A DNA stretch of 60,119 nucleotides from Nemertoderma westbladi (GCA_032718475.1 JAUCBJ010007483.1:1-60119), one strand, 5' to 3'; shown: positions 10,580 to 53,040, counted from the stretch's first letter. Numbers and translations are program-made. The notes: a model not told the origin generated them from the sequence alone.

Positions 10580-10657
10580 CCGCTCCCAGAAAATGGGATT
10601 TGAGTCTATAAAATATACAAAATCACAGTTTCTAATATACGTAAATACTCTAAACAG

Positions 10658-13600: not shown

Positions 13601-13702
13601 GGTTGGATCGGCTTCACCGCATATCAAGCTATCCCCAAATACTTGTAAAGGTAGAGTATATCGCTCCCTGATACCAAGATCATCTTCTATCAACTCCGTC
13701 AT
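10658..13702 (-). pseudogene. Element 1 accessory ORF2: Cys/His-rich zinc-knuckle protein with basic C-terminus, interrupted
   Basis: ORFs 13325-13702, 11174-12433 and 10658-11065 share one frame. The TAA at 11174 is GAA in element 2. Motifs include CHHCQLKGHASFDC (CX2CX4HX4C), CAYC and CRLC, and the end KKLRKRHPRKKD. Confidence 0.75.
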
Positions 13703-15339
13703 ATCTGCTATCTGAGTTTATTAATATTGTAATGAGTTTATGTTTAGGCGAGTGGGCGGCGCTGCCTACCTCTCTTCGCCCCGGACAGTGGGATTCTCAG
13801 CGCCGATGTACCGTCGTCGCGGAGTTTACGCCAACATGTAGCAACATCACGACAACGATAACCGGCACAAGTCACTCCACTGTCCGTCCCAAAGGCTTGA
13901 ATCCACTTTAGGTTCTATCTATAGGAGAGTTGGGTTACTTTCACAATTGCGACTAGCTACTGTAAACATACTTTAGCAGTAACATTCACCTATAAACGCA
14001 CAAATTCCACACAACTGTCACCAATTGTACACATACAGGCCATTTTTCCGTTAGTCAGTGCCTTCCAGAATGTCACGTTATTACTGTGTATCCTTGGATA
14101 CTAACAGTGTGCTATGTATTCTCTATGCTATGCAATGGGACAAGCTTTCTATTGTTCTTTTAACTTGCTTCTAATTCTAGCGTGGGTGTTGCTATGGTGA
14201 CATTATGGAATGCTAGCGGTAGAATTAGGGTAATTCTCATGCATACAGATCTGGAATGCTATTTAATAATAATTCTTTAATTGTCAATATCCTCTTTATG
14301 TATGATTTTATTAATTTTATCGGCTATTGACTATATGTTGGAGATTCTCGCACTCTAATACACTCAATAGGATGAATCTCCGCTCCCATGATCTATTAAT
14401 TAATGGAATTTTGGGAATGTTATAAATTGCACAAAATGACAATTTATAAAATTCATTTAAAATATGAATTTAAATTTATTCCCGTGAATTTTATTATTTG
14501 ATGTTAAAATTGACACAATTTTTATTCCAGAGCATGTCTGGGGACTGAGGATCCTTAATTCTATAAAATTGTCCTTTAAGAGTATCGGTAAACGCTGCGA
14601 TATCTTAATTGACTAGAAATTTAAAGGATCTGAATTTTACAGAATTTTACTAAATATTAAATTAATATTTAAGATGGGCACCGATTTATTCCAGAACTTG
14701 TCTGGGGACGTTAACCACTGATTCTAGAATTTGTCTTTCAAGTATATCGGTGGGTGCCGCGATATCTTAATCGACTAGAATTACAGATGGTCAAAGGTTT
14801 AACAGATTTATTTGCGTTTTATGCTACTGTTAGAGGGACATCACGCTACTATATGTATTATTTAATATAAGGTAGAAGAGCAATATCGCACGAAGCAATG
14901 TCAGTGTGAAGAGGCAAGTCGTTTCCAAGGTCTACCCAGAGCTTGGTTTAGCTGAGACACGAGGATCTGAACTTTGCATTCCTAATACTCTGCCTACCAA
15001 TAATACTTAAATATAGTAGGAGCTTTATTGTACTTTAATAAGTACGGACATTTCATCTTACTGTAGTCACGTATTTATAATATGATACGGACACACGGAC
15101 AGTAAGGAAAGAGAAAAATAATTATTTTCTCGCCGTCGCACTAAATGTATATTATACGTAATTACGTACGTAATAAACACTAATATATTGCACTAATCTA
15201 CTAAATAATCACTAAAATAACATTCTACTAAATAAAATTAAAGAAAACGATTATAATAAAATTACATAATAATACATACATAAATATAAAATACAAACAA
15301 ATATAAAATGATATAGTCACACGCCCACTCCATATGTTA

Positions 15340-18300
15340 TTACGTTATGGAGTCCCTAGATATTTGTCGGATTAGGGAAGTGGTCGTAGGAAGAGTATCT
15401 TGCCTTCCATAGTTTCCGGACAGTTTTCGGTCTCTTTCCAGTAAACATAAACGACCAGCTAGGCGATTGAGTTGTTGTGTTACTTTCTCCGCTCCCTTGG
15501 CCTGTCTAATCTCCGCCGGGGTAAGATGAGGAGGCCATTCTTCTTCTTCTTTACTTAAGAAGTCGGATCCACCTAACCAGCCTGGAGTATCTATCAGTTC
15601 TTGAGGAGTTGCTCCTCTGGAAGCGATGTCGGCTGGATCAATCGTCCCAAGGCAATGTCTCCATTGATCTACATTGGAGTTAATATCGTCATTATCTGAG
15701 GAGTATGGTGTTCCCTCAGTTGGATCGTCCACATCACTGCTCTCCACTTCCCATTCGTTTACTTGGTATACCTGTTGTTGAGGTAATCTCTCTTTGAGAG
15801 TTCTACGGGAAGGGCCAGTGAAGTACCAACCTACTCTAGTTCTTACCGCATAGGTTTGTAGTGGCTGCGGTTGAGCAGGCCGTTTCTCCAATGTCTCGAG
15901 CGCCTCATGCGCGTTTTGGCCGATGAGTATTTGCACTCCAGGATAATCTGTCTGGAATCGAGGTATCTTAAGATGTTGGATGCTCTCATCCTCGTCCCAA
16001 TTATAAAGGTCTGCTTGGGTAGTAGCGAAGTTCTTTATAGCCACCATTTTTACCGACCTTATACCTTGTGCTCCTAATTTATCCTGGGGGGTGGACAACA
16101 CACCTACATAGTAGTCTGCCGTTAGGGTAGATTTCCAAACCTGCATAATTCCTGACATATTTAATTTAGTCCGGAATTTGGGTTGTCCAGCAAAGATATC
16201 TTCGGCTAGTTCTTGATCGATGAATGTTCCTGTGCTGCCGGAGTCAAGGAGGGCGTTCACTATGTAACTTTTGTTAGGACCATGAACTCTTACCTGCACT
16301 ACAGGAAATTCTCTGATTCCTACGTTGGAAGTTGGAGCTTTCCAAGATGGTTGTCTGGCAAAAGTAGTTGGGGGGAACTCATTGTCGGTGTCCTTTTCAT
16401 AAGTAAGTGCTCGATACACTGAGGTATTTATTAGGTAACAGGATTCGTTGGCGTCGGAGAATTCGTCCGTATAGAATCCTTCCATCTCAGACTCTTGATC
16501 AGTGTCATTTACATCACTGAATTGGACATGTAGTTCGGGCTCACTTACCTGACTCGGGTTGTCTCGTTCGAACTCACTGTGTAACAAGATGTGATGTTTC
16601 GCGCCACACTTTGCACACTTTACGTCGGAGTAACAGGTTCGCCGTTGGTGTCCTGATCTGAGGCAATTATAGCATAACCGCTTATTCCACAGGACTGTAC
16701 GTCTGTCTACAGGGGATTTCTTTAGAAATTCAGCACACGCACTCAAACGGTGGGGCCCGTCGCACAGCGCACATTTTGGTTGGATGTTACTCACCTTACT
16801 TAACGTTACCTTTGGGTAACGTTATGCACTCTCGTTCTTTCTTCGGGCTTTCTTCCGTGAATTCTCTTAGGAGACGTAGGAGGAGTTGTTGTTACCTGTT
16901 CTCTCCTGTCACTGGTTCGAGACTTGTATTTACTTACGTCTTTATAGGTCTTGTTGTCATAGTAAGATTTTGCTGTGTCTTTCCCGCTGTCCTCTTCTTG
17001 AGAAGCTTGGCTTTCGCCGTCGTCAGTATAACACACTGGTATTATCCTTCTCCTAGAAGGGAGTTTCTCACTTACCTTATTTTCCGATGTTTTCTCTCTG
17101 GACTGCTTTATGAGTTGTAATTTTACTTCACTATCTAAGAAGGACATGAGATCAGTCATGGTAGGGCTTCGTCGTTGCTGCTCATTCATATACAACACTT
17201 TCTTGTCCCGGCGTGTACATACTCCACCCTTTGGTAAAGTAGAGACTACTGCTCCAATAACCATGGAACTCTGATATTCATGAGACTTACCTAACCAGTC
17301 CAATTGTCTACAGATCTCTTGAATCTCATCGGAAAACTCTATAATCCCGCTACTAAGGAAGTGTCGGGGGGCTACTAATTTGGCATACAAATACTTAGCT
17401 ATGTTATCCTTGTTACCATACCTGATGTTTAATGTATCCCAAACTTGTCTTAATCCTTCTGGATGTCCAATAAACTTTAACGCCATTAACTTGGGAGGTC
17501 CTTCCAAGCACTTGATGAGGAACCTAAGTTTCTCTCCGTTAGATAGTACAGAGTTCTGTATGCTATCTTTGTAATATTCATTGAAAGGTAACCATTTCAT
17601 CTCATCTCCATTGAATTTGACGATCTCTCCCACTTTGACCACTTGGCGGGCTTCTGTTCTAGCCATCTGACGCGTAAAGCTTTCTTGGGCCATCGTGTTA
17701 TTTAATATCGAATTATCGGTATATAAATTTCTCGGATCATTATCAGGTCTATAGGGAATATCATTAATAACAGGTCTATAATCACCCTTAATAGGGTTTG
17801 CTATAGGAGTTTCTACTTCACTAGCAGTATAGATGCGTGTAGGCTCCACACCTTGCGCATGTAATACTTCAGACCTAACAGGTTGACACAATGTTACAGG
17901 GGGTATTGGTATGCCCTTTTGTATATTGACTAACTTGTCGCGTTCCAGTGCGATACTTTGCTGCACTTCTTGCAACTCTGCTCTACCTTCCCTTACTGTT
18001 CCCTTAAGCTGGTGGACAGTCTCCTGCATCTGTCCGAGCAGGAGATTCATCCCCCGCCGTCCCTCCTCTACCCACTCGACCCCCGAAGCGGGAGTCGCCA
18101 ACATTGTAGCGGGCTGACGTGGGACGACGGGAGACAAATCTTTGATTTCTCTCTCAGCTTCCAGGACAGGAATATTCTCATGGACTGTTCTACCGGGTAC
18201 AGGCAGTGTAGTACTGTGTAAAGGGAACTTAGAGTTAAGCTCTGGAAGTACAGGGGTCTCTAGCACAGGTGTGACTTTTGGAACGACAGGCCTAATTATT

Positions 18301-20015
18301 TCAGGCTCATCAACTATTGTTGGGAGTCTTTTGACCTGAATAGTTTGGTATGTGGATTCCGTACTACCTAAGTCTGCGCTAGCTAGCTGTCTTCTAACAG
18401 CTGGGGGCAAATCAGGCAATTTGTGACGGTGAGCTGTTTTTCTACGCCTGCTTAGACGAGATCTATTTCCTCCGCCTTCAGGATCGGTGGTTTCGCTTTC
18501 CTCCGATGATGTGTATCCCTGGCGTTTGGGAGTAGATCGTCTCATCATCTGCATTTGACTAGCAGTTAACTGTTTATTTATGTTGTCTTGCGTCTCTTGC
18601 AGATTTTCCAACTCCAGTTGGGTAGTCTGCTCAGACGCTCTCCGTTCTGCTTCTGCCACTGCCCTTTCCGCCTTTGCTTCTGCCGCCGCTGCCTTTCTTT
18701 TTGCTTCTGCTTCTGCCGCTGCTGCCCTTGCTGCTATTCTTTCTGCTTCTACTTCTGCCGCCGCTGCTTTTCTTTCTGCTTCTACTTCTGCCGCCGCTGC
18801 TTTTCTTTCTGCTTCTGCTTCTGCCGTAGCCGCCGCCTTTTGTTCCTCTATCCGTCTTTTCTTTACTTTTTCTTCTTGGACTCTAGCGAGGCGGAGTTTT
18901 TCATCAAATTCTGCTTGGTTAGCAGCTAACATTTCAGCATCGATTGAATCCAACACACGCTGGGTTCCTTCACTATTGGGGGAAAGTCCAGACAGCCGTC
19001 TCCTCAACTCTTCGTCTCCTAGGAATCGCTGATAGTCGGACAGATAAATGTCTATGGCGTCTCTCGTTCGTGGTTTCTCTGAGGTCTCTTCGCCTTCCAC
19101 TTGAGAAAGGGTGGCATCGGTTGGTTCTTCATAAGTTAGTCTCTCAGACAGCTGGGATTTCCACTGGCCCGTTTCTTGTACTTTGCGACCTACCCGCTGG
19201 AACCAAGTTTTGACAGCAACCTGCAGCGACGTGTCCTGTCTTCTTTTGGAAGTTTCCTCAAAAGCTGATAAGATTAGTCGAATGCGTAGGGTTCTTTCGC
19301 GTACTTGATATAGCAGTTCTTCCTGCTCTTGAGGTCCTAGGGGTTGTCGAAACAGTTGTTCTTCTAATCGCTCTAAGGAGCCGAAGAATCCCTACACATA
19401 TCCTGCTGACGACCTCTTCCAAACAGCTGGATCCATCGTATCTTTAGCCACTCCCATCCTGTATATATCTTCCCAAGTAGCCTCGGACAGATCTAATGGG
19501 AGTCCGGGTCCGGGAAAGTTCCATTGTGACTCGACAATAGACATCAATTCTTCCCTGGCGTATCCCGCATAATTATCTTGGGTCGCTCGCTTATTTCTCA
19601 CCCAATCTGCTTGATGTTCCTCCACCGCAATCAATATAGTTGTTAGCACTGCGGCAGGAAGGGTGAGAAGGGGGTCCGAGTAGGCTTTAGCCGTCGTCTG
19701 CACTCCGCGTTCGGGGGTCAGCTCTACAGTATCCGAACTACTGGAGCTATCGGATCGCTGGGAACAAGTTTCTTGACTAGGATGTTGCTGCTGTTGGACA
19801 GCTGGTTCCTGGTTCCGTTTGACTTGGGCCCGAGTGCCGATGATAGACCTACGGTGTTGGATTAGCTTAGGGTCTGATACTACTACTGGAGGGATGACCT
19901 TTCTTTCAGTAGGAGGTGAGCTGAACTCCTTTCTTAATCGCTCAACACTCCTATCTGTGTCACAGATGGTTGTATCGATTAGGCTGTCTGACAGGTTTTG
20001 CTGAGTGTCAGACAT
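15340..20015 (-). pseudogene. gag: Element 1 Gag-protease ORF, disrupted
   Basis: Colinear with the intact 44954-49603 ORF. CAG>TAG stop at 19392-19394 and a frameshift near 16800. Confidence 0.92.
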
Positions 20016-21329
20016 GTTTAGCTATACAGTTGAATGCTTACTGCTATAGTTACAGTTAAAGCAAGTCTAGTAATTCAGTATGACCGTTGGCCTAGTACCG
20101 GTAATTTATTGCAGTATATTAGAATACCGGTATGCACTTATAATATATATAAGTATTGTAAACTAGTTTTGTCACAGAGTACCGGTATATAAATTTAGCA
20201 CAAATATATATAAATATATAATAGGCCTATCGTGAATACCGGTATACAGCTTACACTTATAGTATATATAAGTATAATTATGAACTAGAATTATTACAGA
20301 ATACCGGTATGATTTCAGCTCAAATTTATAGAAATAAATATAATAAGCCTATGGTAAATACCGGTATGTCAATTATTTTAGAATAATTGAATTTCTGAAT
20401 ATTTTAGGGTTACTTGGTTACTTTAACTTACTTTAATACCGTTATTTAAGCAGTAGTCCAACTGATATTGAGACCTAGTTGTTGTATGGCAGGCCTACTA
20501 TTTATAAATCGTTTGAGTTGATTTATAATAGATATATACCCGTTTAAAATGGGTTTTTGTCAATATTTGAAATAAATGTTATTATTTCTGGGGGGTCACT
20601 ACACAGAAGCTGTGCGCTCTCAGTGAAGTGCTATTTATTTGACACTAAAACTGATAATTCTAATTTACCTAAGTTACTTAATACTACAAATTACTTACGA
20701 TACGGGAGATTAATTCTCTAATTAAACACAACAAAAATATTACGTACGAATTTTTAGGGTAATTTTACAGGAAGTCTACAAACCAGTCTAACAAAGGGTT
20801 AGAATTCTGGTTATTACAACGGACAGGGTACTACGGTATTTGAAAATAATAAGTAGTAGTAAATATATTGCACTGTCCAGATAGGAAAATACCACCGCCT
20901 GACGACCTATAACCGTATCGCTATAGGTACTACGTTATGTATCACGGAGTGTTCCTACCTAGAAGTTAATTACTGCGGACTACCAGATCCAGCGTGCCTA
21001 TTAACCACTTTACAACACAAATATACTGCCCACACACTAATTACTTTCGGAAAGCACTGTACACTAAACCCTAAATTAGGTACAAGTACTAGTACAACAA
21101 ATAATCAGTAGTTAAATATACTTGAACAGTTAAAAGAACCACGGCATCTGCTGGAGTGACCAGAGCACAAAGTCACCAGTCTTGTCCTACGCCAAGCAGC
21201 CCGTGTAGTACCGGGGTTAATTTAACTATAACGGTATGTGTAACAAACACAATTACTGTAGGAATAAACTTGGGGACATGTATGTTGCGAATAATCGCAT
21301 AAACTCTGAACAATAAATATTACGCTACC

Positions 21330-21900
21330 CGTACAGAATACTCAAACAGAATACAAACCAAACGCTGGCAGACTACCACCAAGCCTAAATAAACTACAGT
21401 ATGTGTAGATTCCAAAATGGTTAGTTAGTATGCGTTCTAACACGGTAGTACGACTTATTCTTTAAGAGGGGATTGACATTACAGCTATGGCTGCCCCAAC
21501 TTACTAACTGGCACTCTATCGGACAAACTCTACACACGCAGCAATCTCTTCAGACCTAATAATAGCTAGACAACAATCCAGCCTACAAAATATCTGAGTA
21601 ATAACTATTACAGTACCTGAACAGACCACACAAACAAACACAGGCCAAAACGCTGGCAGAATACTGTCAAGCCTAAATAAACCACAGTATGTGCAGATTC
21701 CAAAATTGTTAGTTAGTATGCGTTCTAACACGGTAGTACGACTTATTCTTTAAGAGGGGATTGACCTTACAGCTATGGCTGCCCCAACTTACTAACTGGC
21801 ACTCTATCGGACAAACTCTACACACGCCGTAATCTCTCCAAACCCAACAACAATCTAACAGCAGTCCGGCCTACAATTATCTGAACAATCTGAGCAGACT
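21330..21900. repeat. ~288-bp tandem duplication in the element 1 leader (also ~50930-51500 in element 2)
   Basis: The block aaacgctggcaga...gctgccccaacttactaac occurs twice. Confidence 0.9.
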
Positions 21901-22054
21901 TACACGTCTTCAGCTCAATATTAACTTACATGTAAATAAAACCGACAGAAATAAGTAAAATCTCAATAAAAAATCAGGGCTGCAGTCCCTGATTAAATAC
22001 TAAGACCTACCGGTATACAATAATCAAAATCGAATAATACTAATGTACTTATAC

Positions 22055-22185
22055 TGGAAGTACCGGTTAGGACAGTTGGGCCTACGGACCTACAGAAGTA
22101 CCGGTTCTGGCAGTTGGACCTACGGACCTACAGCAGTACCGGTTCTGGCAGTTGGGCCTACTGACCTACAGAAGTACCGGTTCAG
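22055..22185. repeat. 38-bp tandem repeat, about 3.5 copies, in the leader next to the 5' LTR (also 51652-51782)
   Basis: taccggtt at 22061, 22099, 22137 and 22175. Confidence 0.9.
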
Positions 22186-22237
22186 GTTTACCGGTCGACC
22201 GGTACTTTCAACTTTATTGCTTACTGCAATAAAGTCA

Positions 22238-22248
22238 ATGACTGTTAT
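22238..22248 (-). promoter_or_regulatory. Non-tRNA primer-binding site candidate, element 1
   Basis: Abuts the 5' LTR, lacks TGG, and is 10/11 complementary to the LTR 11-mer at 23016-23026. Confidence 0.6.
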
Positions 22249-23531
22249 TGTACGCGCTTTTGAAGACCTTTAGCAGTTTAACCTGCCAAAATTTATATGT
22301 CTTTTGGTTTATAAATATACTTTAGAAGATGACAAATATTTAATACCAATAAACACAACATTAGCAGAAGCCAGCCTAGTGCGCGTCTATTCACCCGCTG
22401 GATATTCCCGGGAGACTGGATTCTGAGGGCTTAGATTATTATTGCAGTGTAAGCTTACTGTACTGTATTATTCGATTGATCGTTAATAATTAATTTCTGA
22501 CTAATATTATTCACTTTCGGGAAATATTAACAGTTCCTTTAGGACGTGGCGCTCTATCTAAGTAAACAGAGATATGACTTATACTAATCACAACGGTAAG
22601 TCGGTAAGGCTTAAGATTCACGTATGAGGCGCATTCTTTAGGAAATGCTTAGTTATCAGTCACAATCAGGCACTCTACCGGTAACATACAATACTGCTCA
22701 CTAATTTGCCGACCGTCAATGATTTTTATCATATATAAAGAGAACAGCAACGGACCAATGTAGTGCTTATCAAATAGCATTAAATTCACTACAATACACA
22801 ATAATGTAAGTCGCAATCGCTATATATAACCCGTCTCTCTAACCTGTAGTGTATCAAGAAAATTGGGAAATTTGGGTTCTTTATATATGTTCTCCAAATA
22901 ATGTTCAACCAAACACAATAGTAAACAGCAGTATAATAATGTATATTGAACCGATAATATAAAAATAGAAACCAGTTGTTATGAATTGATATATGATGTG
23001 GACTGTTATGAACTGATAACAGTTATACGCTCTATAATTTAAGCCTACTAATGTTTCTTCTAAAGTATGAAACGAATTGATTCTAGAGCCGTTGTTCCTG
23101 GCCTAGATAGCAAAAACACAAAGTATCAAGAAAAAACAGTAAGACTGAACAGTGAACACTCTCCTTATGATCGGCCGAAAAGCTACACGTCGACAGGAAA
23201 AATCGCTCTGATTGGCTCAAGCCAAACAAAGAACCATGCGTCCAATGGCTGTTTCCATGTCAGCAACCAGCTGTTAGATGTCGTAATATGAATCATCACG
23301 GCTAAGCTGTGAAAGGTATTTGGTGCATTGCAGGTTTTTTGCCTTACCATGTCCGCTAAAACACGTATATAGCAGAATGACTTTTATGTCCGTTAAAACA
23401 CCTGTAACGGTACCTTGCGGGCGAGGGGAATATATATACAGTTAGAGAACCTTTTTAGAGTATTCCAGCGCCTGGGGGGAAACTGGATTGCGAAGCAAAA
23501 GGGCCAGTTATATCCCACAGAAGCTTTTACA
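22249..23531 (-). repeat. 5' LTR of element 1 (1283 bp)
   Basis: Differs from the 3' LTR by about a dozen substitutions (by eye) and a 7-bp insertion. Confidence 0.95.
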
Positions 23532-25711: not shown

Positions 25712-25869
25712 GATTTCTGGTTGGTGTTAGTTGGTGGCACTGATTCCGGTGTGACTGAGGATTTCCATAGATCCATTTCGATTTCCAATGTTTGGTCTGG
25801 GCTGCGCTGAGAAGCGGTGAAGAGTCTCATCAGTTCATTAGTTTACCTGTTAAAAGTCATATGTCTTAA

Positions 25870-39893: not shown

Positions 39894-40612
39894 TTAACTT
39901 TTATTCTTGCGGAGTTGTTCTTCTGACCAGGAAAGTACAGTCAAAATCGTGTCACATTTGGTAGGTGGAGAATCAATCAAAGGCCCAAAAGGAACTGAGT
40001 AGGTCCTTCGGGTATATGGCCGTCTTCTTGTGATTTACATTGTATGCAATCTGACAATTCCATTTGAGTTGTTACACTGTTATGGTGAACTGATGATACA
40101 CACCAAGAGACATCAGTTTTCAATGCTGAGTTTAAGATTTAACAGTTTCAAAAATCAAATGGGAAGATTGCTGTTGGTAAACAAATGCTGGTGGTAATGG
40201 TTTTATTTCCCCCATTGAATGGAAGAGAATCGATAGCAGTTAGATTTCTTACCCTTAATGAGTTTAATTCCTTTTTACTATATGTTCTAGGAATGTTTAT
40301 TTCACATGGTTTAGCACTGCCTCCACTTGATAGCTGTGTGAACTCTGAAGCTGTTACTGCATTTCTCGACATCCATTTGGTGTATAAACTTGTAAATCAA
40401 AATTATCACACCACACACTAATTATATTTGGACTATCATTGAATACATCTTTGAAACTGGAATATGTGGCCGATTTGCGAAATCTTAACACTTCATCAAA
40501 ACTAGCAACGTATCCATTCGAGTGTAAAATATCAATATGTTGCCTGGGTCCAAACTGGAAGTGTAGCTTTATAGCCAAACCAAGCATGGTCTGATTATAA
40601 GATTTACAGACT

Positions 40613-41805
40613 TGTTCGCGCTTTTGAAGACCTTTAGCAGTTTAACCTGCCAAAATTTATATGTCTTTTAGTTAATTAACACACCTTTAGCATACGACAA
40701 TATTTTATGCTAATAAACAAAACATTAGCCGAAGCCAGCCCATGCGCGATCATTCACCCGATGGATACACCCGGGAGACTGAATTCGGATGCTTAGATTT
40801 TATTATTGCAGTGTAAGGTTGCAGTGTAAGCCTACTGTATTATTCGATTGATCGCTAATATGTAATTTCTGACAGATATTATTAACTTTCGGGAAATATT
40901 AACAGTTCCTTTAGGACGTGGCGCTCTATCTATTTAAACAGAGCTAGGACTTATACTAAACGCAACGATAAGGCTTATGATTAAAGTATAAGGCGCATTC
41001 TTTAGGAAATGCTTTGTTACCAGTCACATCACACTCACAATCATGCACACTATTCTGCCGACCGTCAGTATATTTGATCACACATAAAGAGAACAGCAAT
41101 TGACTCAGGTAGTGTCTACTAAATAACATTAGATTCAATACACACCACATTGATATAAATCGCAATTGTTATATATAGCCTGTCTCTCTAACCTGTAGTG
41201 TATCAAGAAATTGGGAAACTTGGGTGATTTATCAATATTCTCCAAATGACAATATTTCATCAACAAATCGATACAATTAATAACTGACGGTAAATAGCAG
41301 TACAAACAATATGATTAGTGCAGTTAAATTAAGTGAGGTAACACCGCCGGTAACAGTTATACTTTCTATAATCTAAGCAGTTTTTGCTAGAGTTGTTCCA
41401 AAAGCCGGTGTTATGGCGAAAAATGGGAACACAACAACAGAATCCTATAAAGAATCATATGACTACATGACTATACGAGGATACCAACTACCCTTATTCC
41501 CCGAAGCTCCCGTCCAACACAGAGGATGAGCATACAGATAGGAAATTCAGTTCAGTAGCTCTGGGATAGGTCAAAATCAACGCCCACTCAAATTCTATTG
41601 GCAGATACGGACAGCAGGGCTGAGGCAACCTCCCTAAGCTGGTTGGCCGATCGAACAGCACCCAGATCCCTTCGCACAGCAAATCAGCCAATCAGCCGGT
41701 AGCTTGCATTATTCTAGCTAGATATCCCTTTTTTAGAGTATTCAGCGACTGGGGGGAACTGGTTAGCAAAGCAAATGAATCAGTTATCCCATAAAAGCTT
41801 TTACA
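40613..41805 (-). repeat. 3' LTR of element 2
   Basis: TGT...ACA, matches 51848-53040 with few substitutions, and has the same GGGAGCGG tract adjacent. Confidence 0.95.
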
Positions 41806-41883
41806 CCGCTCCCAGAAAATGGGATTTAAGTCTATAAAATATACAAAATCACAGTTTCTAAAATATAAAAATACTCTAAACAG

Positions 41884-43333
41884 TTAGTCTTTCTTGCGCG
41901 GACGGCGTTTACGCAGTTTTTTAAAGCTAGCCAGAGTCTTTTTCTCTTTGGGGCGAGCCACTTTACAAGGAGGGCTATAACTCCTGGGTGAAGGGTGCAA
42001 TATGATTGCATCAGAGGGTATAGGATTATGGTCGGTGTATCCGCCAGTCGAAGTGCCGAGTTGATTGACATCAACGTCGGGGGAGAGGGGTCTAACGGCC
42101 TTTAGAGCGCGTTTTAGGACAGCCGCTCTTACGGGTCCTTTACGAGTGGTCTGAACGAGAGCCGTAGGTGGACCATAGGCAGTTAGAAACTTCCTGGGTT
42201 TAATGGTTCTTTCCAACTCGCGTTCGCGGGCTCGGTATTCGTAAGGCCGTCGATATACTTCCTGTAACTCGGGGTATGAGTTAACAAATAAGTCTCCATA
42301 GTCCGGGTCCTGACGGATATAACTGATTAAGTTATAGGAATGAAGGTTGCTAGGATTAACCCTCCTGAGAAATTTGCGTACGAACTTGGTTGAAATACAT
42401 TCTCCGACGCGCTTCAGTAGTTCGTAACTCGATATGCGTGATTTCTGTTCGACAGAAGCGAATAGATAAGGATGGAACGCATAAACTCCTTCGTAAGCGC
42501 GTCCAGGATAATAACGATGGCGCGAATCACAATGTAAATCAGCGTTCGCTTACCAAGCTCTGATGTAACGTAGCGTGATCATTTCATCTACGCTTTCCAA
42601 ATCGTGATTAAAAAGGGCAATGGAAACTGGCGCGTCCCTTTAGTTGACACTGGTGACATTGAGTCATAAATTGAGGGCAAACCGCAAAAATGTGCAAGTT
42701 ATTGAGTCTGTAATACGCGCAATAAATTTCCATCGTCGGTTGTTCGTGGAAATAGGAACAGCGGACGTTTGTGTCCATGGGCGTAACATGGTCTCTCGAT
42801 GCGCATAACCGACAACGTTGCCGAGAAACATAGTTGGCATGGCGATAATCGTACGCAGTGAGACACTGTGGACCTTGATATCATTCTAGGAGGTAATCGT
42901 TGTCGTTGTTCCGGGCGCGATAGGCTGAATCTCCTCAGATTCTAGGCATATTGGTTCGTCTTCCCAGTCTGTTACGAATAGAATTTTCGTGATCTATTCT
43001 CGGTTTATCGTTACGACGCCGCTGGGTATGATATTTAAATAGAACCATTTCCCTTTTGGTGTCTACATCGTCCGTATCATGTAAATCGATAGGATGGCCG
43101 GTAGTTAGGAGGTCAATATACGTATTATTACGATTCGTATAGCGAGCGGTGAATTTTCGATAGTCCAATTCACGCGTAAGTTGCTCTTGGGACATCGGCG
43201 GTTCGATATAGCGACCATCGTCCTCCGTAATGGTTGGATCGGTTTCACCGCGTATCAAGCTATCCACAAATGCTTGTAAAGGTAGAGTATATCGCTCTCT
43301 AATACCAAGGTCATCTTCTATCAATTCCGTCAT
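41884..43333 (-). pseudogene. Element 2 accessory ORF2, internally deleted and frameshifted
   Basis: Homologous to 10658-11680 and 13335-13702. About 1.65 kb is missing at a junction near 42965. Confidence 0.8.
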
Positions 43334-44953
43334 ATCTGCTATCTGAGTTTATTAATATCAGTATGAGATAATATTTAGGCAAGCGGGCGTCGCTGCCTAC
43401 TAGTCTTTGCCCCCGGACAGTGGGTTTCTCAGCGCCGATGTACCGTCGTCGCGGTGTTTACACCAACATGTAGCAACAGCACGACAACGATAACCGGCAC
43501 AAGTCCCACCACTGTCCGTCCCAAAGGCTTGAATCCACTTGAGGTTATCTCGGTAGAGTTAGGGCTACTTTACAATTGCGATTAGCTACTGTAAACACAC
43601 TTTAGTAGTAACATTCACCTATAAACGCACAAATTCCATACAATCATTACTTACTGCACACATGCAGGCCATTTGTCCGTTAATCAGTGTCTTCCAGAAT
43701 GTCACGTTATTACTATGTATCCTTGGATACTAATAGTGCGCTATGTATATTCTTATGCTACGCAATGGGGCAAGCTTTTTATTGTTCCTTTAACTTGCTT
43801 CTAATTCTAGCGTGGGTGTTGCCATGGTGACATTATGGAAAACTAGCGGTAGAATTAGGGTAATTCTCATGCATACAGATCTGGGATGCTATTTAATAGT
43901 AATTCTTTAATTGTCAATATCCTCTTTATGCATGATTTTATAAATTTTATCGGCTATTGACTATATGTTGGAGATTCTCGCACTCTAGTACACTCAATAT
44001 GAATCTCCGCTCCCATGATCTATTAATTACTGGAATTTTGGGAATGTTATAAATTGCACAAAATGACAATTTATGAAATTCATTTAAATATGAATTTAAA
44101 TTTATTCCCGTGAATTTTATTATTTGATGTTAAATTGACACCAATTTTATTCCAGAGCATATCTGGGGACTTAGGATCCTTGATTCTATAAAATAGTCCT
44201 TCTAAGAATATCGGTAAATACTGCGATATCTTAATTGACTAGAAATTTTAAAGGATCGGGATTTTACAGATTTTAATAAATATTAAATTAATATTTAGGA
44301 TGAGCACCGATTTATTCCAGAACTTGTCTGGGGACGTTAACCACTGATTCTAGAATTTGTCTTTCAAGTATATCGGTGGGTGCCACGATATCTTAATCGA
44401 CTAGAATTACAGATGGTCAAAAAGTTTAACAGATTTATTTGCGATTTACGCTACTGTTAGAGGGACATCACGCTACTATATGTATTATTTGTTATAAGGT
44501 AGAAGAGCAATATCGCACGAAGCAATGTCAGTGTGAAGAGGCAAGTCGTTTCCAAGGTCTACCCAGAGCTTGGTTTAGCCGAGACACGAGGATCTGAACT
44601 TTGCATTCCTAATACTCTGCCTACCAATAATACTTTAATATAGTAGTGGCTTTATTGTACTTTAATAAGTACTGACATGTCATCTTACTATAGTCTCGCA
44701 TTTATAATATAATACGGACAGTAAGGAAAGAGAAAAATAAATATTTCTTGCCGTCGCACTAAATATATTGTAAGTAATTAAATACGTAATAAACACTAAT
44801 ATATTGCACTAATTTACTAAATATTCTAAAATAACATTCTACTAAATAAAATTAAAGAAAACGATTATAATAAAATTACATAATAATACATACATAAATA
44901 TAAAATAAAAACAAATATAAAATGATATAGTCACACGCCCACTCCATATGTTA

Positions 44954-47900
44954 TTACGTTATGGAGTCCCTAGATATTTGTCGGATTAGGGAAGTGGTCG
45001 TAGGAAGAGTATCTTGCCTTCCATAGTTTCCGGACAGTTTTCGGTCTCTTTCCAGTAAACATAAACGACTAGCTGGGCGATTGAGTTGTTGTGTTAGTTT
45101 CTCCGCTCCCTTGGCCTGTCTACTCTCCGCCGTGGTAAGATGAGGAGGCCATTCTTCTTCTTCTTTACTTAAGAAGTCGGATCCACCTAACCAGCTTGGA
45201 GTATCTATCAGTTCTTGAGGAGTTGCTCCTCTGGAAGCGATGTCGGCTGGATTAATCGTCCCAAGGCAATGTCTCCATTGATCTACATCGGAGTTAATAT
45301 CGTCATTATCTGAGGAGTATGGTGTTCCCTCAGTTGGATCGTCCACATCACTGCTCTCCACTTCCCATTCCTTTACTTGGTATACCTGTTGTTGAGGTAA
45401 TCTCTCTTTGAGAGTTCTACGGGAAGGGCCAGTGAAGTACCAACCTACTCTAGTTCTTACCGCATAGGTTTGTAGTGGCTGCGGTTGAGCAGGCCGTTTC
45501 TCCAATGTCTCGAGCGCCTCATGCGCGTTTTGGCCGATGAGTATTTGCACTCCAGGATAATCTGTCTGGAATCGAGGTATCTTAAGATGTTGGATGCTCT
45601 CATCCTCGTCCCAATTATAAAGGTCTGCTTGGGTAGTAGCGAAGTTCTTTATAGCCACCATTTTTACCGACCTTATACCTTGTGCTCCTAATTTATCCTG
45701 GGGGGTGGACAACACACCTACATAGTAATCTGCCGTTAGGGTAGATTTCCAAACCTGCATAATTCCTGACATATTCAATTTAGTCCGGAACTTGGGTTGT
45801 CCAGCAAAGATATCTTCGGCTAGTTCTTGATCGATGAATGTTCCTGTGCTGCCGGAGTCAAGGAGGGCGTTCACTATGTAGCTTTTGTTAAGACCGTGAA
45901 CTCTTACTTGAACTACAGGAAATTCTCTGATTCCTACGTTGGAAGCTGGAGCTTTCCAAGATGGTTGTTTGGCGAAAGTAGTTGGGGGAAACTCATCGTT
46001 GATGTCCTTTTCGTAAGTAAGTGCTCGATACACTGCGGTATTTATTAGATAACAGGATTCATTGGTGTCGGAGAATTCGTCAGTATAGAATCCTTCCATC
46101 TCAGACTCTTGATCAGTGTCGTTTACGTCACTGAATTGGACATGTAGTTCGGGCTCACTTACCTGACTCTGTCTGTCTCGTTCGAACTCACTGTGTAACA
46201 AGATGTGATGTTTCGCGCCACACTTTGCACACTTTATGTCGGAGTAACAGGTTCGCCGTTGATGTCCTGGTCTGAGGCAATTATAGCATAACCGCTTGTC
46301 CCACAGGACTGTACGTCTGTCTACAAGGGATTTCTTTAGAAATTCAGCACACGCACTCAAACGGTGGGGCCCGTCGCACAGCGCACATTTTGGTTTGATG
46401 TTACTCACCTTAACTTGGTTAACGTTATGCAATCTCGTTCTTTCTTCGGGCTTTCTTCCGTGAATTCTCTTAAGAGACGTAGGAGGAGTTGTTGTTACCT
46501 GTTCTCTCCTGTCACTGGTTCGAGACTTGTATTTACTTACGTCTTTATAGGTCTTGTTGTCATAGTAAGATTTTGCTGTGTCTTTCCCGCTGTCCTCTTC
46601 TTGGGAAGCTTGGCTTTCGCCGTCGTCAGTGTAACACACCGGTGTTACTCTTCTCCTAGAAGTGGGTTTCTCACTTACCTTATTTTCCGATGTTTTCTCT
46701 CTGGACTGCTTGATGAGTTGTAGTTTTACTTCACTATCTAAGAAGGACATGAGATCAGCCATGGTAGGACTTCGTCGTTGTTGTTCATTCATGTACAACA
46801 CTTTCTTGTCCCAGCGTGTACATACTCCACCCTTTGGTAAAGTAGAGACTACGGCTCCAATAACCATGGAACTCTGATATTCATGCGACTTACCTAACCA
46901 GTCCAGTTGTCTACAGATCTCTTGAATTTCATCGGAAAACTCTATAATCCCGCTACTAAGGAAGTGTCGGGGGGCTACTAATTTTGCATACAAATACTTA
47001 GCTATGTTATCCTTGTTACCATACCTGATGTTTAATGTATCCCAAACTTGTCTTAATCCATCTGGATGTCCAATAAACTTTAACGCCATTAACTTGGGAG
47101 GTCCTTCCAAGCACTTGATGAGGAATCTAAGTTTCTCTCCGTTAGATAGTACAGAGTTCTGTATGCTATCTTTGTAATATTCGTTGAAAGGTAACCATTT
47201 CATCTCATCTCCATTGAATTTGACGATCTCTCCCACTTTGACCGCTTGGCGGGCTTCTGTTCTAGCCATCTGACGCGTAAAGCTTTCTTGGGCCATCGTG
47301 TTATTTAATATCGAATTATCGGTATATAAATTTCTCGGATCATTATCAGGTCTATAGGGAATATCATTAATAACAGGTCTATAATCACCCTTAATAGGGT
47401 TTGTTATAGGAGTTTCAACTTCACTAGCAGTATAGATGCGTGTAGGCTCCACACCTTGCGCATGTAATACTTCAGGCCTAACAGGTTGACACAATGTTAC
47501 AGGGGGTATTGGTATGCCCTTTTGGATATTGACTAATTTGTCGCGTTCTAGTGCGATACTTTGCTGCACTTCTTGCAACTGTGCTCTACCTTCCCTCACT
47601 GTTCCCTTAAGTTGGTGGACAGTCTCCTGCATCTGTCCTAGCAGGAGATTCATCCCCCGCCGTCCCTCTTCTACCCACTCAACCGCCGAAGCGGGAGTCG
47701 CCAACATAGTAGCGGGCTGACGCGGGACGACGGGAGACAAATCTTTGATTTCTCTCTCTGCTATCCGGACAGGGATATTCTCTTGGACTGTTCTACCGGG
47801 TACAGGCAGTGTAGTACTATGTAAAGGGAATTTAGAGTTAAGCTCTGGAAGTACAGGGGTCTCTAACACAGAAGTGACTTTGGGAACGACAGGCCTAATT

Positions 47901-49603
47901 ATTTCAGGCTCATCAACTATTGTAGGGAGTCTTTTGACCTTAATACTTTGGGCTGTAGGTTCTATACTACTCAAGTCTGTGCTAGCTAGCTGTCTTCTAA
48001 CAGCTGGGGGCAAATCAGGCAATTTGCGACGGTAAGATGTTTTTCTACGCCTACTTAGATGAGATCTATTTCCTCCGCCTTCAGGATCGGTGGTCTCGCC
48101 TTCCTCCGAGGATGTGTATCCCTGGCGCTTGGGAGTAGATTTTCTCATCATCTGCATTTGATTAGCAGTAAACTGTTTATTTATACTGTCTTGCGTCTCT
48201 TGCAGATTTTCCAACTCCAGTTGGATAGTCTCCTCAGAAGCTCTCCGTTCTGCTTCTGCCACTGCTGCTTTTCTTTCTGCTTCTGCTTCTGCCGCCTTTC
48301 TTTCGGCTTCTGCTTCTGCTTCTGCCGACTTTCTTTCGGCTTCTGCTTCTGCTTCTGCCGACTTTCTTTCGGCTTCTGCTTCTGCCGACTTTCTTTCGGC
48401 TTCTGCTTCTGCCGCCGCTGCTGCTGCCACCTTTCTTTTCTCTATCCATTCTTTCTTTACTTGTTCTTCTCGGACTCTAGTGAGGCGGAGTTTTTCATCA
48501 CATTCAGCTTGGTTTGCAGCTAACATTTCGGCATCGATTGAGTCCAACACAAGCTTGGTTCCTTCACTATTAGGGGAAAGTCCAGACAGCCGTCTCCTCA
48601 ACTCTTCGTCTCCTAGGAATCGCTGATAGTCGGACAAATAAATGTCGATAGCGTCTCTAGTTCGCGGTTTCTCGGCGGTCTCTTCGCTTTCCGCTTGAGA
48701 AAGGGTGACATCAGTTTGTTCTTCATAGGGTGATCTCTCAGCCAGCTGGGATTTCCACTGGGCCGTTTCCTGTACTTTGAGATCTACCCGATGTAACCAA
48801 GTTTTGACAGCAACTTGCAGCGACGTGTCCTGTCTTCTCTTGGAAGTTTCCTCAAAGGCTGAGAGGATTAGTCGAATGCGTAGGGTTCTTTCGCGTACTT
48901 GGTATAGCAGCTCTTCCTGCTCTTGAGGTCCTTGAAGTTGTCGAAACAGTTGTTCTTCCAATCGCTCCAAGGAGCCGAAGAATCCCTGCACATATCCTGC
49001 TGCCGACCTCTTCCAAACAGCTGGATCCATTGTATCTTTAGCCACTCCCATCCTGTGTATATCTTCCCAAGTAGCCTCGGACAGATCCAACGGGAGTCCG
49101 AGTCCGGGAAAGTTCCATTGTGACTCGACAATAGACATCAATTCTTCCCTGGCGTATCCCGCATAATTATCTTGGGTCGCTCGCTTATTCCTCGCCCAGT
49201 CGGCTTGATGTTCCTCCACCGCAATGAATATAGTAGTTAGCACTGCAGCAGGAAGGGTAAGAAGGGGGTCCGAGTAGACTGTAGCAGCCATCTGCACTCC
49301 GCTTTCGGGGGTTAGCTCTACCGTATCTGAACTACTGGAGCTATCGGGTCGCTGGGAAGTAGGTTCTTGACCAAGATGTTGCTGCGATGGGACAACTGCC
49401 TCTTGGTTCCATTTGACCTGTGCCCGAGTGCCTATGATGGACCTATGGTGGATTAGCCTAGGGTCTGATACTACTGGAGGGATGACCTTTCTTGCAGTAG
49501 GAGGTGAGCTGAACTCCTTTCTTAATCGCTCCACACTCCTATCTGTGTCACAGATAGTTGTATCGATCAGACTGTCTGACAGGTTTTGCTGAGTGTCAGA
49601 CAT
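44954..49603 (-). CDS. gag: Intact 1549-aa Bel/Pao Gag-aspartic protease fused to an RNase H C-terminal remnant
   Basis: Coiled-coil N-terminus, DUF1759-like KFNGDEMKW...EKLRFLIKCLEG, triple zinc knuckle (CALCDGPHRLSAC, CYNCLRPGHQRRTC, CAKCGAKHHILLH), protease ALLDSGS/ILIG/RTRVGW, then QWRHCLGTINPADIASRG...WP. Confidence 0.93.
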   Translation of the reverse strand: MSDTQQNLSDSLIDTTICDTDRSVERLRKEFSSPPTARKVIPPVVSDPRLIHHRSIIGTRAQVKWNQEAVVPSQQHLGQEPTSQRPDSSSSSDTVELTPESGVQMAATVYSDPLLTLPAAVLTTIFIAVEEHQADWARNKRATQDNYAGYAREELMSIVESQWNFPGLGLPLDLSEATWEDIHRMGVAKDTMDPAVWKRSAAGYVQGFFGSLERLEEQLFRQLQGPQEQEELLYQVRERTLRIRLILSAFEETSKRRQDTSLQVAVKTWLHRVDLKVQETAQWKSQLAERSPYEEQTDVTLSQAESEETAEKPRTRDAIDIYLSDYQRFLGDEELRRRLSGLSPNSEGTKLVLDSIDAEMLAANQAECDEKLRLTRVREEQVKKEWIEKRKVAAAAAAEAEAERKSAEAEAERKSAEAEAEAERKSAEAEAEAERKAAEAEAERKAAVAEAERRASEETIQLELENLQETQDSINKQFTANQMQMMRKSTPKRQGYTSSEEGETTDPEGGGNRSHLSRRRKTSYRRKLPDLPPAVRRQLASTDLSSIEPTAQSIKVKRLPTIVDEPEIIRPVVPKVTSVLETPVLPELNSKFPLHSTTLPVPGRTVQENIPVRIAEREIKDLSPVVPRQPATMLATPASAVEWVEEGRRGMNLLLGQMQETVHQLKGTVREGRAQLQEVQQSIALERDKLVNIQKGIPIPPVTLCQPVRPEVLHAQGVEPTRIYTASEVETPITNPIKGDYRPVINDIPYRPDNDPRNLYTDNSILNNTMAQESFTRQMARTEARQAVKVGEIVKFNGDEMKWLPFNEYYKDSIQNSVLSNGEKLRFLIKCLEGPPKLMALKFIGHPDGLRQVWDTLNIRYGNKDNIAKYLYAKLVAPRHFLSSGIIEFSDEIQEICRQLDWLGKSHEYQSSMVIGAVVSTLPKGGVCTRWDKKVLYMNEQQRRSPTMADLMSFLDSEVKLQLIKQSREKTSENKVSEKPTSRRRVTPVCYTDDGESQASQEEDSGKDTAKSYYDNKTYKDVSKYKSRTSDRREQVTTTPPTSLKRIHGRKPEERTRLHNVNQVKVSNIKPKCALCDGPHRLSACAEFLKKSLVDRRTVLWDKRLCYNCLRPGHQRRTCYSDIKCAKCGAKHHILLHSEFERDRQSQVSEPELHVQFSDVNDTDQESEMEGFYTDEFSDTNESCYLINTAVYRALTYEKDINDEFPPTTFAKQPSWKAPASNVGIREFPVVQVRVHGLNKSYIVNALLDSGSTGTFIDQELAEDIFAGQPKFRTKLNMSGIMQVWKSTLTADYYVGVLSTPQDKLGAQGIRSVKMVAIKNFATTQADLYNWDEDESIQHLKIPRFQTDYPGVQILIGQNAHEALETLEKRPAQPQPLQTYAVRTRVGWYFTGPSRRTLKERLPQQQVYQVKEWEVESSDVDDPTEGTPYSSDNDDINSDVDQWRHCLGTINPADIASRGATPQELIDTPSWLGGSDFLSKEEEEWPPHLTTAESRQAKGAEKLTQQLNRPASRLCLLERDRKLSGNYGRQDTLPTTTSLIRQISRDSIT

Positions 49604-51836
49604 GTTTAGCTATACGGTTGAATGTCTACTACTATAGTTTCAGTTAAAGCAGGTCTGGTAATTCAGTATGACCGCAAGCCTAGCGATTTATTACCTATAC
49701 CGTTACTCGGTGTAACGTGATATATATACAATATATTAGAATACCGGTATGCTTATAATATATATATAAGTATTATTACAGACTAGATTTGTCACAGAGT
49801 ACCGGTATATAATTTTAGCACAAATATATATAAATATATAATAGGCCTATCGTGAATACCGGTAGACAGCTTACACTTATAGTATATATAAGTATAATTA
49901 TGAACTAGAATTAATTACAGAATACCGGTATGATTTCAGCTCAAATTTATAGAAATAAATATAATAAGCCTATGGTAAGTACCGGTATGTCAATTATTTT
50001 TAGAATAATTGAATTTCTGAATATTTTAGGGTTACTTGGTTACTTTAACTTACTTTATTACCGTTATTTAAGCAGTAGTCCAACTGATATTGAGACCTAG
50101 TTGTTGTATGGCAGGCCTACTATTTATAAATCGTTTGAGTTGATTTATAATATATATATACCCGTTTAAATGGGTTTTTGTCAATATTTGAAATAAATGT
50201 TATTATTTCTGGGGGGTCACTACACAGAAGCTGTGCGCTCTCAGTGAAGTGCTATTTAGTTGACACTAAAACTGATAATTCTAATTTACCTAAGTTACTT
50301 AATACTACAAATTACTTACGATATGGGTGAGATTAATTCTCTAATTAAACACAACAAAATATTACGTACGAAATTTTTAGGGTAATTTTACAGGAAGTCT
50401 ACAAACCAGACTAACAAAGGGTTAGATTACTGGTTATTACAACGGACAGGGTACTACGGTATTTGAAATAATAAGTAGCAGTAAATATATTGCGTTGTCC
50501 AGATAGGAAAATACCACCACCTGACGACCTATAACAGTATCGCTATAGGTACTACGTTATGTATCACGGAGTGTTCCTACCTAGAAGTTAATAGTGCTAA
50601 CGAATGTGCCTATCAACCACTTTACAACACAAATATACTAATTACTTCGGAAAGCACTGTACACTAAACCCTAAATTAGGTACAAGTACCGGTATAACCA
50701 ATAATCAGTAGTTAAATATACTTGAACAGTTAAAAGAACCACGGCATCTGCTGGAGTGACCAGAGCACAAAGTCACCAGTCTTGTCCTACGCCAAGCAGC
50801 CCGTGTAGTACCGGGGTTAATTTAACTATAACGGTATGTATAACAAGCACAATTACTGTAGGAATAAACTTGGGGACATGAATGTTGCGAATAATCGCAT
50901 AAACTCTGAATAATAAATATTACGCTACCCGTACAGAATACTCAAACAAAATACAAACCAAACGCTGGCAGACTACCACCAAGCCTAAATAAACTACCGT
51001 ACGTGTAGATTCTGAAATTGTTAGTTAGTATGCGTTCTAACACGGTAGTACAACTTATTCTTTAAGAGGGGATTGACCTTACAGCATATGGCTGCCCCAA
51101 CTTACTAACGGCACTTTGTCAGACAAACTCCACACACCCAGCAATCTCTTCAGACCTAATAATAGCTAGACAACAATCCAGCCTACAAAATATCTGAGTA
51201 ATAACTATTACGGTACCTGAACAGACCACACAAACAAACACAGGCTAAAACGCTGGCAGACTACGATCAAGCCTAAATAAACTACAGTATATGCAGATTC
51301 TGAAACAGTTAGTTAGTATGCGTTCTAACACGGTAGTACGACTTATTCTTTAAGAGGGGATTGACCTTACAGCATATGGCTGCCCCAACTTACTAACGGC
51401 ACTTTATCAGACAAACTCTACACACGCCGTAATCTCTCCAAACCCAACAACAGTCAGACAGCAGTTCAGCCTACAATTATCTGAACAATCTGAACAGACT
51501 TACACGTCTTCAGCTCAATATTAACTTACTAGGAAATAAAACCGACAGAAATAAGTAAAATCTCAATAAAAACCAGGGCGGCCGTCCCTGATAAATACTA
51601 AGACCTACCGGTATACAATAATCAAATTCGAATAATACTAATGTACTTATACAGCAGTACCGGTTAGGACAGTTGGGCCTACAGACCTACAGAAGTACCG
51701 GTTCTGGCAGTTGGACCTACGGACCTACAGCAGTACCGGTTCTGGCAGTTGGGCCTACTGACCTACAGAAGTACCGGTTCAGGTTTACCGGTCACTACGG
51801 TATTTTGCAACCTTATTGCTTACTGCAATAAGATCG

Positions 51837-51847
51837 ATAACTGTTAC
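51837..51847 (-). promoter_or_regulatory. Non-tRNA primer-binding site candidate, element 2
   Basis: ataactgttac is the exact reverse complement of gtaacagttat at 52585-52595 in the LTR. Confidence 0.65.
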
Positions 51848-53040
51848 TGTTCGCGCTTTTGAAGACCTTTAGCAGTTTAACCTGCCAAAATTTATATGTC
51901 TTTAAGTTAATTAACACACCTTTAGCATACGACAATATTTTATGCTAATAAACAAAACATTAGCCGAAGCCAGCCCATGCGCGATCATTCACCCGATGGA
52001 TACACCCGGGAGGCTAAATTCGGATGCTTAGATTTTATTATTGCAGTGTAAGGTTGCAGTGTAAGCCTACTGTATTATTCGATTGATCGCTAATATGTAA
52101 TTTCTGACAGATATTATTAACTTTCGGGAAATATTAACAGTTCCTTTAGGACGTGGCGCTCTATCTATTTAAACAGAGCTAGGTCTTATACTAAACGCAA
52201 CGATAAGGCTTATGATTAAAGTATAAGGCGCATTCTTTAGGAAATGCTTTGTTACCAGTCACATCACACTCACAATCATGCACACTATTCTGCCGACCGT
52301 CAGTATATTTGATCACACATAAAGAGAACAGCAATTGACTCAGGTAGTGTCTACTAAATAACATTAGATTCAATACACACCACATTGATATAAATCGCAA
52401 TTGTTATATATAGCCTGTCTCTCTAACCTGTAGTGTATCAAGAAATTGGGAAATTTGGGTGATTTATCAATATTCTCCAAATGACAATATTTCATCAACA
52501 AATCGATACAATTAATAACTGACGGTAAATAGCAGTACAAACAATATGATTAGTGCAGTTAAATTAAGTGAGGTAACACCGCCGGTAACAGTTATACTTT
52601 CTATAATCTAAGCAGTTTTTGCTAGAGTTGTTCCAAAAGCCGGTGTTATGGCGAAAAATGGGAACACAACAACAGAATCCTATAAAGAATCATATGACTA
52701 CATGACTATACGAGGATACCAACTACCCTTATTCCCCGAAGCTCCCGTCCAACACAGAGGATGAGCATACAGATAGGAAATTCAGTTCAGTAGCTCTGGG
52801 ATAGGTCAAAATCAACGCCCACTCAAATTCTATTGGCCGATACGGACAGCAGGGCTGAGGCAACCTCCCTAAGCTGGTTGGCCGATCGAACAGCACCCAG
52901 ATCCCTTCGCACAGCAAATCAGCCAATCAGCCGGTAGCTTGCATTATTCTAGCTAGATATCCCTTTTTTAGAGTATTCAGCGACTGGGGGGAACTGGTTA
53001 GCAAAGCAAATGAATCAGTTATCCCACAAAAGCTTTTACA
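51848..53040 (-). repeat. 5' LTR of element 2
   Basis: TGT...ACA, near-identical to 40613-41805. Confidence 0.95.

Follow-up and report, generated by a model that had tools for sequence, protein, structure and literature searches.

Two LTR retrotransposons of the BEL/Pao superfamily, located in a 60,119-nucleotide stretch of Nemertoderma westbladi DNA that is referred to here as the window, probably prime reverse transcription with their own RNA. We put the probability of this reading at roughly 0.7. Priming would be Tf1-like, with a primer-binding site (PBS) that can pair with 11 nt in the LTR of the same element, and the pairings around the U5/PBS junction that were flagged in an earlier, sequence-only reading would be the helices flanking the primer duplex. 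Directly visible in the DNA are the lack of a tRNA-type site, the 11-nt complement, its conservation, matched changes between copies and, by complementarity, candidate helices next to the PBS.

Two Non-Autonomous BEL/Pao Elements

In this A+T-rich window, the minus strand carries two LTR elements; a solo LTR is also present. Element 2 (40613..53040, minus strand) and its sister, element 1 (9304..23531, minus strand), each have a 5-bp target duplication, and the solo LTR, called C (976..2124, minus strand), has one of its own. The LTRs of element 1 (9304-10579 and 22249-23531) are 99.1% identical and those of element 2 are 99.4% identical, from which it follows that both elements moved recently and that some primer was needed. 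The 5′ LTR of element 2 (51848..53040, minus strand) runs from TG to CA over 1193 bp. In both elements the BEL/Pao hallmarks are present, i.e., TG...CA terminal repeats, a 5-bp target duplication and a polypurine tract (PPT), which in element 2 lies upstream of the 3′ LTR (41806..41813, minus strand). A short inverted repeat overlapping this tract (41806-41830, minus strand) was seen by eye in both elements.

As the ORFs lie on the minus strand, the RNA is the minus strand. The coding region of element 2 (44957..49609, minus strand) specifies a Gag with DUF1759, three zinc knuckles and a DSG protease, which is followed directly by the C-terminal motif of RNase H. DUF1759 was recognized by Pfam (E 8e-12 and 4e-12), and the protein matches carry the BEL/Pao Pfam set, the closest proteins being only about 30-45% identical. 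Compared to full-length relatives, about 550 residues including the RT are gone, and no integrase is found downstream. Elements 1 and 2 are non-autonomous, RT-less BEL/Pao derivatives. After pol there is an extra ORF with CCHC-like zinc knuckles (10661-12448, minus strand), which has one stop in element 1 and is partly deleted at 41887-42880. It matched no Pfam family and no homologue, and the atlas leads point to zf-CCHC with scores below 0.9.

The LTRs are mosaic and sit on element bodies that are 92-97% alike. The U3 of element 2 (52696-53040) has little in common with that of element 1 (23127-23531), with 49% identity for these approximate bounds, and part of the element 1 U3 resembles the U3 of solo C (1790-2124, approximate). 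Several other repeats occur in the window. A 55-bp satellite with strong G skew is present in 92 copies (28658-33757), and two reverse-transcriptase fragments (RVT_1) on opposite strands, probably non-LTR remnants, are found at 34716-36974. An inverted repeat of 1.3-1.5 kb (25866-27369 and 38357-39897; 89%) contains internal 163-bp units, and a 36-bp tandem array (56996-58072) has several open frames, which would be Ser/Thr-rich if coding.

The PBS Matches the Element's Own LTR

According to the ICTV, the PBS of BEL/Pao elements is 18 nt complementary to tRNA-Arg or tRNA-Gly, in a family whose replication is poorly understood (PMC8742986). Neither window element has such an 18-nt site for a tRNA 3′ end. 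TGG, the mark of a tRNA-type PBS, is absent from the first 30 nt after either 5′ LTR, and ARAGORN found no tRNA genes in the window or in 79 distant BEL/Pao loci.

The 11 nt directly after the LTR of element 2 (51837..51847, minus strand), which lack TGG, are the perfect complement of 52585..52595 (minus strand), a conserved island in a diverged part of the LTR. This candidate self-primer lies 748 nt upstream of the PBS and has a copy at 41350-41360. A match of 11/11 contiguous pairs at offset 0 was reached by 6/2000 Markov sequences, 0/270 other leader 11-mers and 1/300 shuffles. In element 1 the PBS (22238..22248, minus strand) forms 10/11 pairs, eight of them contiguous, with the homologous LTR site (23016-23026; copy at 10071-10081), for which the corresponding counts were 60/2000 Markov sequences and 4/270 other leader 11-mers. 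The first base is compensatory between the elements, G:C at the priming end of one duplex corresponding to A:U in the other; elsewhere the element 1 duplex carries a C.A mismatch. The primer is 10/11 identical between both elements, compared to 57-61% identity in its flanks.

Solo C provides a third version of the primer site (1678-1688), which differs from element 2 at primer positions 4, 6 and 11 and at position 11 has the letter of element 1. Since C is unlike both elements at positions 4 and 6, matching changes in its PBS were predicted. Among public contigs aligned to the end of solo C, a PBS variant with C's letter was found for position 4 in run X3 (five contigs, agreement 0.87) and for position 6 in run X4 (two contigs, agreement 0.8). 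Neither run shows both changes in these unphased data, and the other loose ends at this edge look like insertion flanks. The prediction was borne out in part.

It could be argued that a fragment of a host tRNA primes at a short internal match, in the way of the half-tRNAs of Copia elements, and that the helices described below serve packaging, dimerisation, polyadenylation control or translation. Six letters of the PBS could pair with the anticodon loop of tRNA-Asn, which amounts to six pairs compared to 10-11 with the own LTR. Moreover, PBS and LTR site change jointly from copy to copy, which would not be possible with an invariable host tRNA, and in the distant loci unrelated PBS sequences each match their own LTR. 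Although the ICTV calls the family tRNA-primed (PMC8742986), half-tRNA priming is known in Copia lineages (PMC6317226, in part) and the palindromes of the leader, 12-13 ACCGGT sites, could be packaging or dimer signals, we consider priming by a tRNA fragment improbable, and priming by the own LTR is the reading we retain.

Other matches of the PBS were considered as well. A primer at 52135-52142, behind a TATA-like box, was rejected, as this match spans only 7-8 bp, is invariant in C, is predicted to pair locally and reaches a duplex probability of 0.0. The segment is the 5′ arm of a conserved interrupted hairpin (52069..52142, minus strand; lower bound approximate). A primer made by splicing within the window's own LTRs was likewise rejected, the best match being contiguous. 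As judged by eye, all three LTR lineages have a conserved pyrimidine tract that runs into a splice-acceptor-like site (around 52420-52450, minus strand); no conserved splice donor was found for it.

The LTR of element 1 additionally holds a 9-nt exact copy of the element's own PBS, mismatched base included, 6 nt downstream of the primer site (23002-23010, with a copy in the 3′ LTR). Through this copy, a local 8-bp hairpin can cover the primer. It is possibly a regulator or a by-product of replication.

Candidate Helices on Both Sides of the PBS

On one side, the PBS is adjoined by the U5-terminal arm of the helix that was flagged earlier (51848..51856, minus strand), a U5-IR-like position. Its internal partner (51979..51987, minus strand) lies in the loop of a long stem (51964..52023, minus strand), in which 52011-52023 and 51964-51976 form 12/13 pairs around a 4-bp inner hairpin. 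Without guidance, RNAalifold recovers this stem, in the loop of which the partner stays unpaired. As a consequence of this position, the U5-end helix crosses the long stem and has to be a pseudoknot or an alternative fold; by its geometry, the combination would be an H-type pseudoknot if both form together. In pseudoknot-free folding the probability of the U5-end helix is 0.01-0.27, and the helix forms once the 5′ arm of the long stem is omitted (z -3.6 and -2.1). The long stem alone has z-values of -0.2 to -1.5 on the minus strand, which is not significant compared to shuffles. A partner with 8/9 pairs was found within 300 nt in 35-51/2000 Markov sequences, i.e., about 2%, and across the whole LTR in 30-61/500, i.e., 6-12%. 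Taken alone, the partner of the U5 end is modest to weak evidence.

On the other side, a leader hairpin of 12 bp in element 2 (51808..51836, minus strand) is flush with the 3′ edge of the PBS. This hairpin, 12-13 bp over both elements, has a z-value of about -6 and was matched by 0/200 shuffles. The same leader region can pair with the LTR over a long distance (LTR arms at 52038..52058, minus strand). Leader bases 17-26 (51822-51831) pair with 52038-52047, a homologous pairing that is present in both elements. In element 2 only, a second helix of 10 bp joins 51806-51815 with 52049-52058 and rests on element-2-specific letters on both sides. The leader hairpin and the leader:LTR helix are mutually exclusive and the pairing of each is kept in both elements, which suggests that they might form a switch. 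The energy of the leader:U5 duplex (RNAduplex) is no better than that of shuffles (945 and 311 of 1000). The PBS would in this way be flanked by the U5-end helix on one side and by the leader hairpin or the leader:LTR helix on the other.

The first 55 bases of the leader (51793..51847, minus strand) diverge with the LTR and not with the body of the element. Their identity between the elements is 75%, compared to 81-83% for the LTR, 100% for the next 100 bases and about 95% for the rest, and the differences at 13/53 sites in leader bases 1-55 compared to 0/100 in the next stretch are significant (p 4e-6). The best reading is that the LTR and these 55 bases travel or co-adapt as a unit, with faster local evolution as the alternative. 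The leaders as a whole are 2.2 kb long (49600-51847 and 20010-22248) and contain 12 and 13 palindromic ACCGGT sites, compared to one in 17 kb outside. These sites, partly within a 38-bp tandem repeat, are possible packaging or dimer signals. Duplications of 288 bp and 122 bp are also present in the leaders.

Conservation and Covariation

The sequence-only reading had claimed that both the pairing of the LTR terminus and the hairpin past the PBS covary. All strings on which it relied are present, for the LTR terminus and its partner (9304/9436, 51848/51979 and 976/1096), for the long stem (1081-1093/1128-1140) and for the hairpin (22213-22233 and 51812-51832), and the weakening substitution that it reported in the LTR copy at 22381 was located at 22388. 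The terminal pairing exists and has one two-sided change, but it comprises 8/9 pairs and its covariation is thin, as the five LTR copies represent only three lineages (E1, E2 and solo C). The hairpin has one two-sided change as well, but it is longer than described, with 12-13 bp, and the site next to it is not a tRNA PBS.

For the named structure as a whole, 99.6% of 244 cells are paired over the five LTR copies, i.e., three lineages, with one failing. In 3/56 pairs both sides change, once per helix (long stem, U5-end helix and leader hairpin), and this count was matched by 120/500 shuffles. The covariation score exceeds that of 500/500 shuffles, with a warning by the tool that relatedness inflates this score, and RNAalifold gave no net covariation bonus (+0.76). 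Covariation by itself is too thin for significance. The one-sided changes in the long stem all give G.U pairs on the minus strand and would give C.A on the plus strand. Paired columns vary less than unpaired ones (7/88 compared to 58/197, Fisher p 3e-5, for helices chosen from the same sequences). Among 40 of 157 variant rows, the three variants inside the proposed helices (52013, 52016 and 52043) retain pairing on the minus strand, and none of these 40 rows falls in the U5-end helix or the PBS.

These figures bear on whether the pairings are chance or functionless leftovers, i.e., short complementarities in A+T-rich sequence that were chosen post hoc from three related lineages. Each helix has one two-sided change only, the U5-end partner appears in about 2% of null sequences and in 6-12% over the whole LTR, and the energies of the long stem and the leader duplex are not significant compared to shuffles. 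The 11/11 match at offset 0, the conservation of paired columns (p 3e-5), the z-value of the hairpin (about -6), the co-diverging 55-nt module and the self-matches in 7/7 distant loci all argue against chance, and so does the recent movement of both elements, for which some primer was needed. Chance is in our view very improbable, and self-priming with flanking helices accounts for the pairings better.

Self-cleavage, for which an in vitro assay had been proposed, found no support. At gathering score the window matched none of the Rfam covariance models, and between 51600 and 52600 E-values up to 5 brought up two weak non-ribozyme matches but no ribozyme. A ribozyme was rejected on these grounds and on the lack of a conserved hammerhead or HDV core by eye.

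A Possible Priming Mechanism

By analogy with Tf1, transcription would begin at the primer site or a short way upstream of it. The primer would then fold back onto the PBS and be held there by the U5-end helix, which would either form a pseudoknot with the long stem or alternate with it, and by the leader helix or hairpin. An autonomous relative would provide the RT in trans. The RNase H of this RT would cleave the RNA behind primer position 11, and the resulting 3′ end would be extended into U5. The mutually exclusive hairpin and long-range leader helix may act as a switch in this process.

Folding predictions give a varied picture. When the RNA of element 2 starts at the primer, the primer:PBS duplex has a probability of 0.96 (826 nt) or 0.42 (806 nt), and with 20-40 upstream bases this drops to 0.0-0.40; for element 1 the values are 0.29 or 0.12 and 0.0 with upstream bases added, all of these being unstable values that depend on the 3′ end and exclude pseudoknots. 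The two extra duplexes of the Tf1 type are present by complementarity only (U5-end helix 8/9, leader helix at least 10 bp), with folding probabilities that are low or unstable.

Self-priming could also occur without fold-back of the 5′ end. The primer would then be internal, or be supplied in trans by the 3′ LTR copy or by a second packaged RNA, and the U5-end helix and hairpin would only present the PBS. In favor of this variant, the primer lies 713-778 nt from the LTR end, and no TATA box was found about 30 nt upstream of it. The primer site is present in both LTRs, and in distant loci the primer is at an exon joint and need not consist of the first nucleotides. However, the families are 78-88% identical downstream of the site but only 62-69% upstream, as expected near a U3/R border, and 20-40 additional upstream bases weaken or abolish the predicted duplex. 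We therefore hold this variant to be unlikely and prefer fold-back of a 5′-terminal primer, although the latter implies an R-U5 of about 750 nt, whereas that of the distant loci measures 107-210 nt once spliced.

Self-Matching PBS Sequences in Distant BEL/Pao Loci

In a metagenome scan, 79 distant BEL/Pao loci were kept, 26 with and 53 without a terminal repeat. Eleven loci have repeats lacking a usable LTR edge. Eight have a repeat that apparently fixes the 5′ LTR end, one of which (L072) was left out as its LTR copy lies within pol. In all seven remaining loci (7/7), a site of 10-13 nt is complementary to a canonical GT-AG splice junction of the locus's own LTR. These sites lie 0-3 nt after the LTR, each was reached by 0-1/300 shuffles, and none of the seven loci has TGG at the LTR end. 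As L046 and L047 are one family and L071 has the same 11 letters, this represents five or six independent cases. Seven more loci, in which only the LTR start is fixed, gave three spliced matches (one in the L046 family), one contiguous match and three without a match, with a null of 1-3/40. The loci whose PBS matches a GT-AG splice joint of their own LTR are L021, L046, L047, L048, L058, L064, L071, L051, L054 and L079, with the site mostly 3 nt after the LTR end.

Several distant loci end in a local U5-terminal hairpin, which is the short-range counterpart of the U5-end helix in the window. With only 30-50% likeness in protein, the distant loci bear on the superfamily and not on the family of the window elements. 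The LTR pattern had no matches in metagenome contigs, and a search for BEL/Pao in viral contigs gave 25 pattern matches, none of them confirmed.

A wider proposal can be made. Self-priming might be widespread in BEL/Pao, a third LTR superfamily, with a full pretzel over about 800 nt, a pseudoknot that locks U5, a hairpin-or-helix switch gating initiation, joint inheritance of the LTR and 55 leader bases, and relatives that splice their primer. We see this as a serious possibility that falls somewhat short of even odds.

Comparison With Known Self-Priming Systems

Self-priming has been demonstrated only for Tf1 and is predicted for its group and for one Copia lineage. In the literature covered, no report of self-priming in BEL/Pao was found. 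The terms PBS, primer and tRNA did not occur in a term search of a large BEL/Pao survey (PMC3118150), nor did the consulted part of PMC8220671 hold anything further on BEL/Pao priming. If the proposed reading is true, a third superfamily self-primes with the same three-helix design, which bears on whether self-priming or tRNA priming is the ancestral state and implies that PBS-based annotation tools miss such elements. To this, the window adds the helices around the PBS, a 55-nt leader module that co-diverges with the LTR, and a comparison with independent metagenome loci. From it, the proposed RNA start, cut site and folds can be assigned exact coordinates that lend themselves to testing.

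In retroviruses, the U5-IR and U5-leader stems are helices that flank the primer duplex on both sides. The retroviral primer is a tRNA, in contrast to the candidate primer of the window elements, which is their own LTR. The sequence-only reading had compared the window structure to the U5 stems of both Tf1 and retroviruses. An initiation structure like that of Tf1 is still the best reading, with the hairpin abutting the primer helix, but the primer would be the LTR segment 52585-52595 and not a tRNA.

In Tf1, the first 11 bases are the primer and RNase H cuts between bases 11 and 12 (PMC7175516, in part), and a 'pretzel' of three duplexes is required (PMC10085805, in part). Self-priming is described for Tf1/sushi elements and predicted for Tcn1 and the TAR lineage of Copia (PMC6317226, PMC4600332, PMC2864245 and PMC3601003, each in part). 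Tf1 and Tf2 of Schizosaccharomyces pombe, Tj1, Tosmo1-3 and the Tf1/sushi group share with the window elements an LTR-adjacent PBS of 11 nt that is complementary to the own LTR (PMC7175516, PMC10085805 and PMC4600332, each in part). Tf1/sushi is also alike in two further duplexes, between PBS-adjacent sequence and the LTR downstream of the primer (PMC10085805, in part). However, Tf1/sushi elements are Ty3/gypsy chromoviruses, and the window elements are BEL/Pao by protein and so are not members. Unlike in Tf1, some 750 nt separate the window primer from the LTR end, the U5 end has its partner inside a long stem's loop, the leader hairpin competes with the third duplex, and RT and RNase H must come in trans. 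The 5′-end position of the primer and its cleavage by RNase H have been shown for Tf1; for the window elements both are proposed by analogy.

With BEL/Pao (Belpaoviridae, Semotivirus), known from animals only (PMC3601003, in part), the window elements share the DUF1759 Gag, three zinc knuckles, DSG protease, C-terminal RNase H motif, TG...CA LTRs, 5-bp duplication and short PPT. Unlike standard members, they have no 18-nt tRNA PBS, have lost RT and integrase and carry an extra zinc-knuckle ORF. For the TAR lineage (Houba, Osr-1; Ty1/copia) and the Tcn1 clade, self-priming was predicted from sequence by a complementarity of at least 10 bp, 0-5 bp after the 5′ LTR (PMC6317226, in part). Element 2 fits this rule with 11 contiguous pairs, whereas element 1 has only eight. 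These elements belong to other superfamilies, of plants and fungi, and flanking helices are not described for them in the consulted part of that source. The Conserved Hairpin Site of fungal GalEa Copia elements is a hairpin at the PBS position without a tRNA site, for which the consulted part of the paper records no LTR complement found by its authors (PMC5445492), while the window hairpin follows an 11-nt site that does have one. The window feature is real, and it probably represents a BEL/Pao derivative that works like Tf1 outside the Tf1 group.
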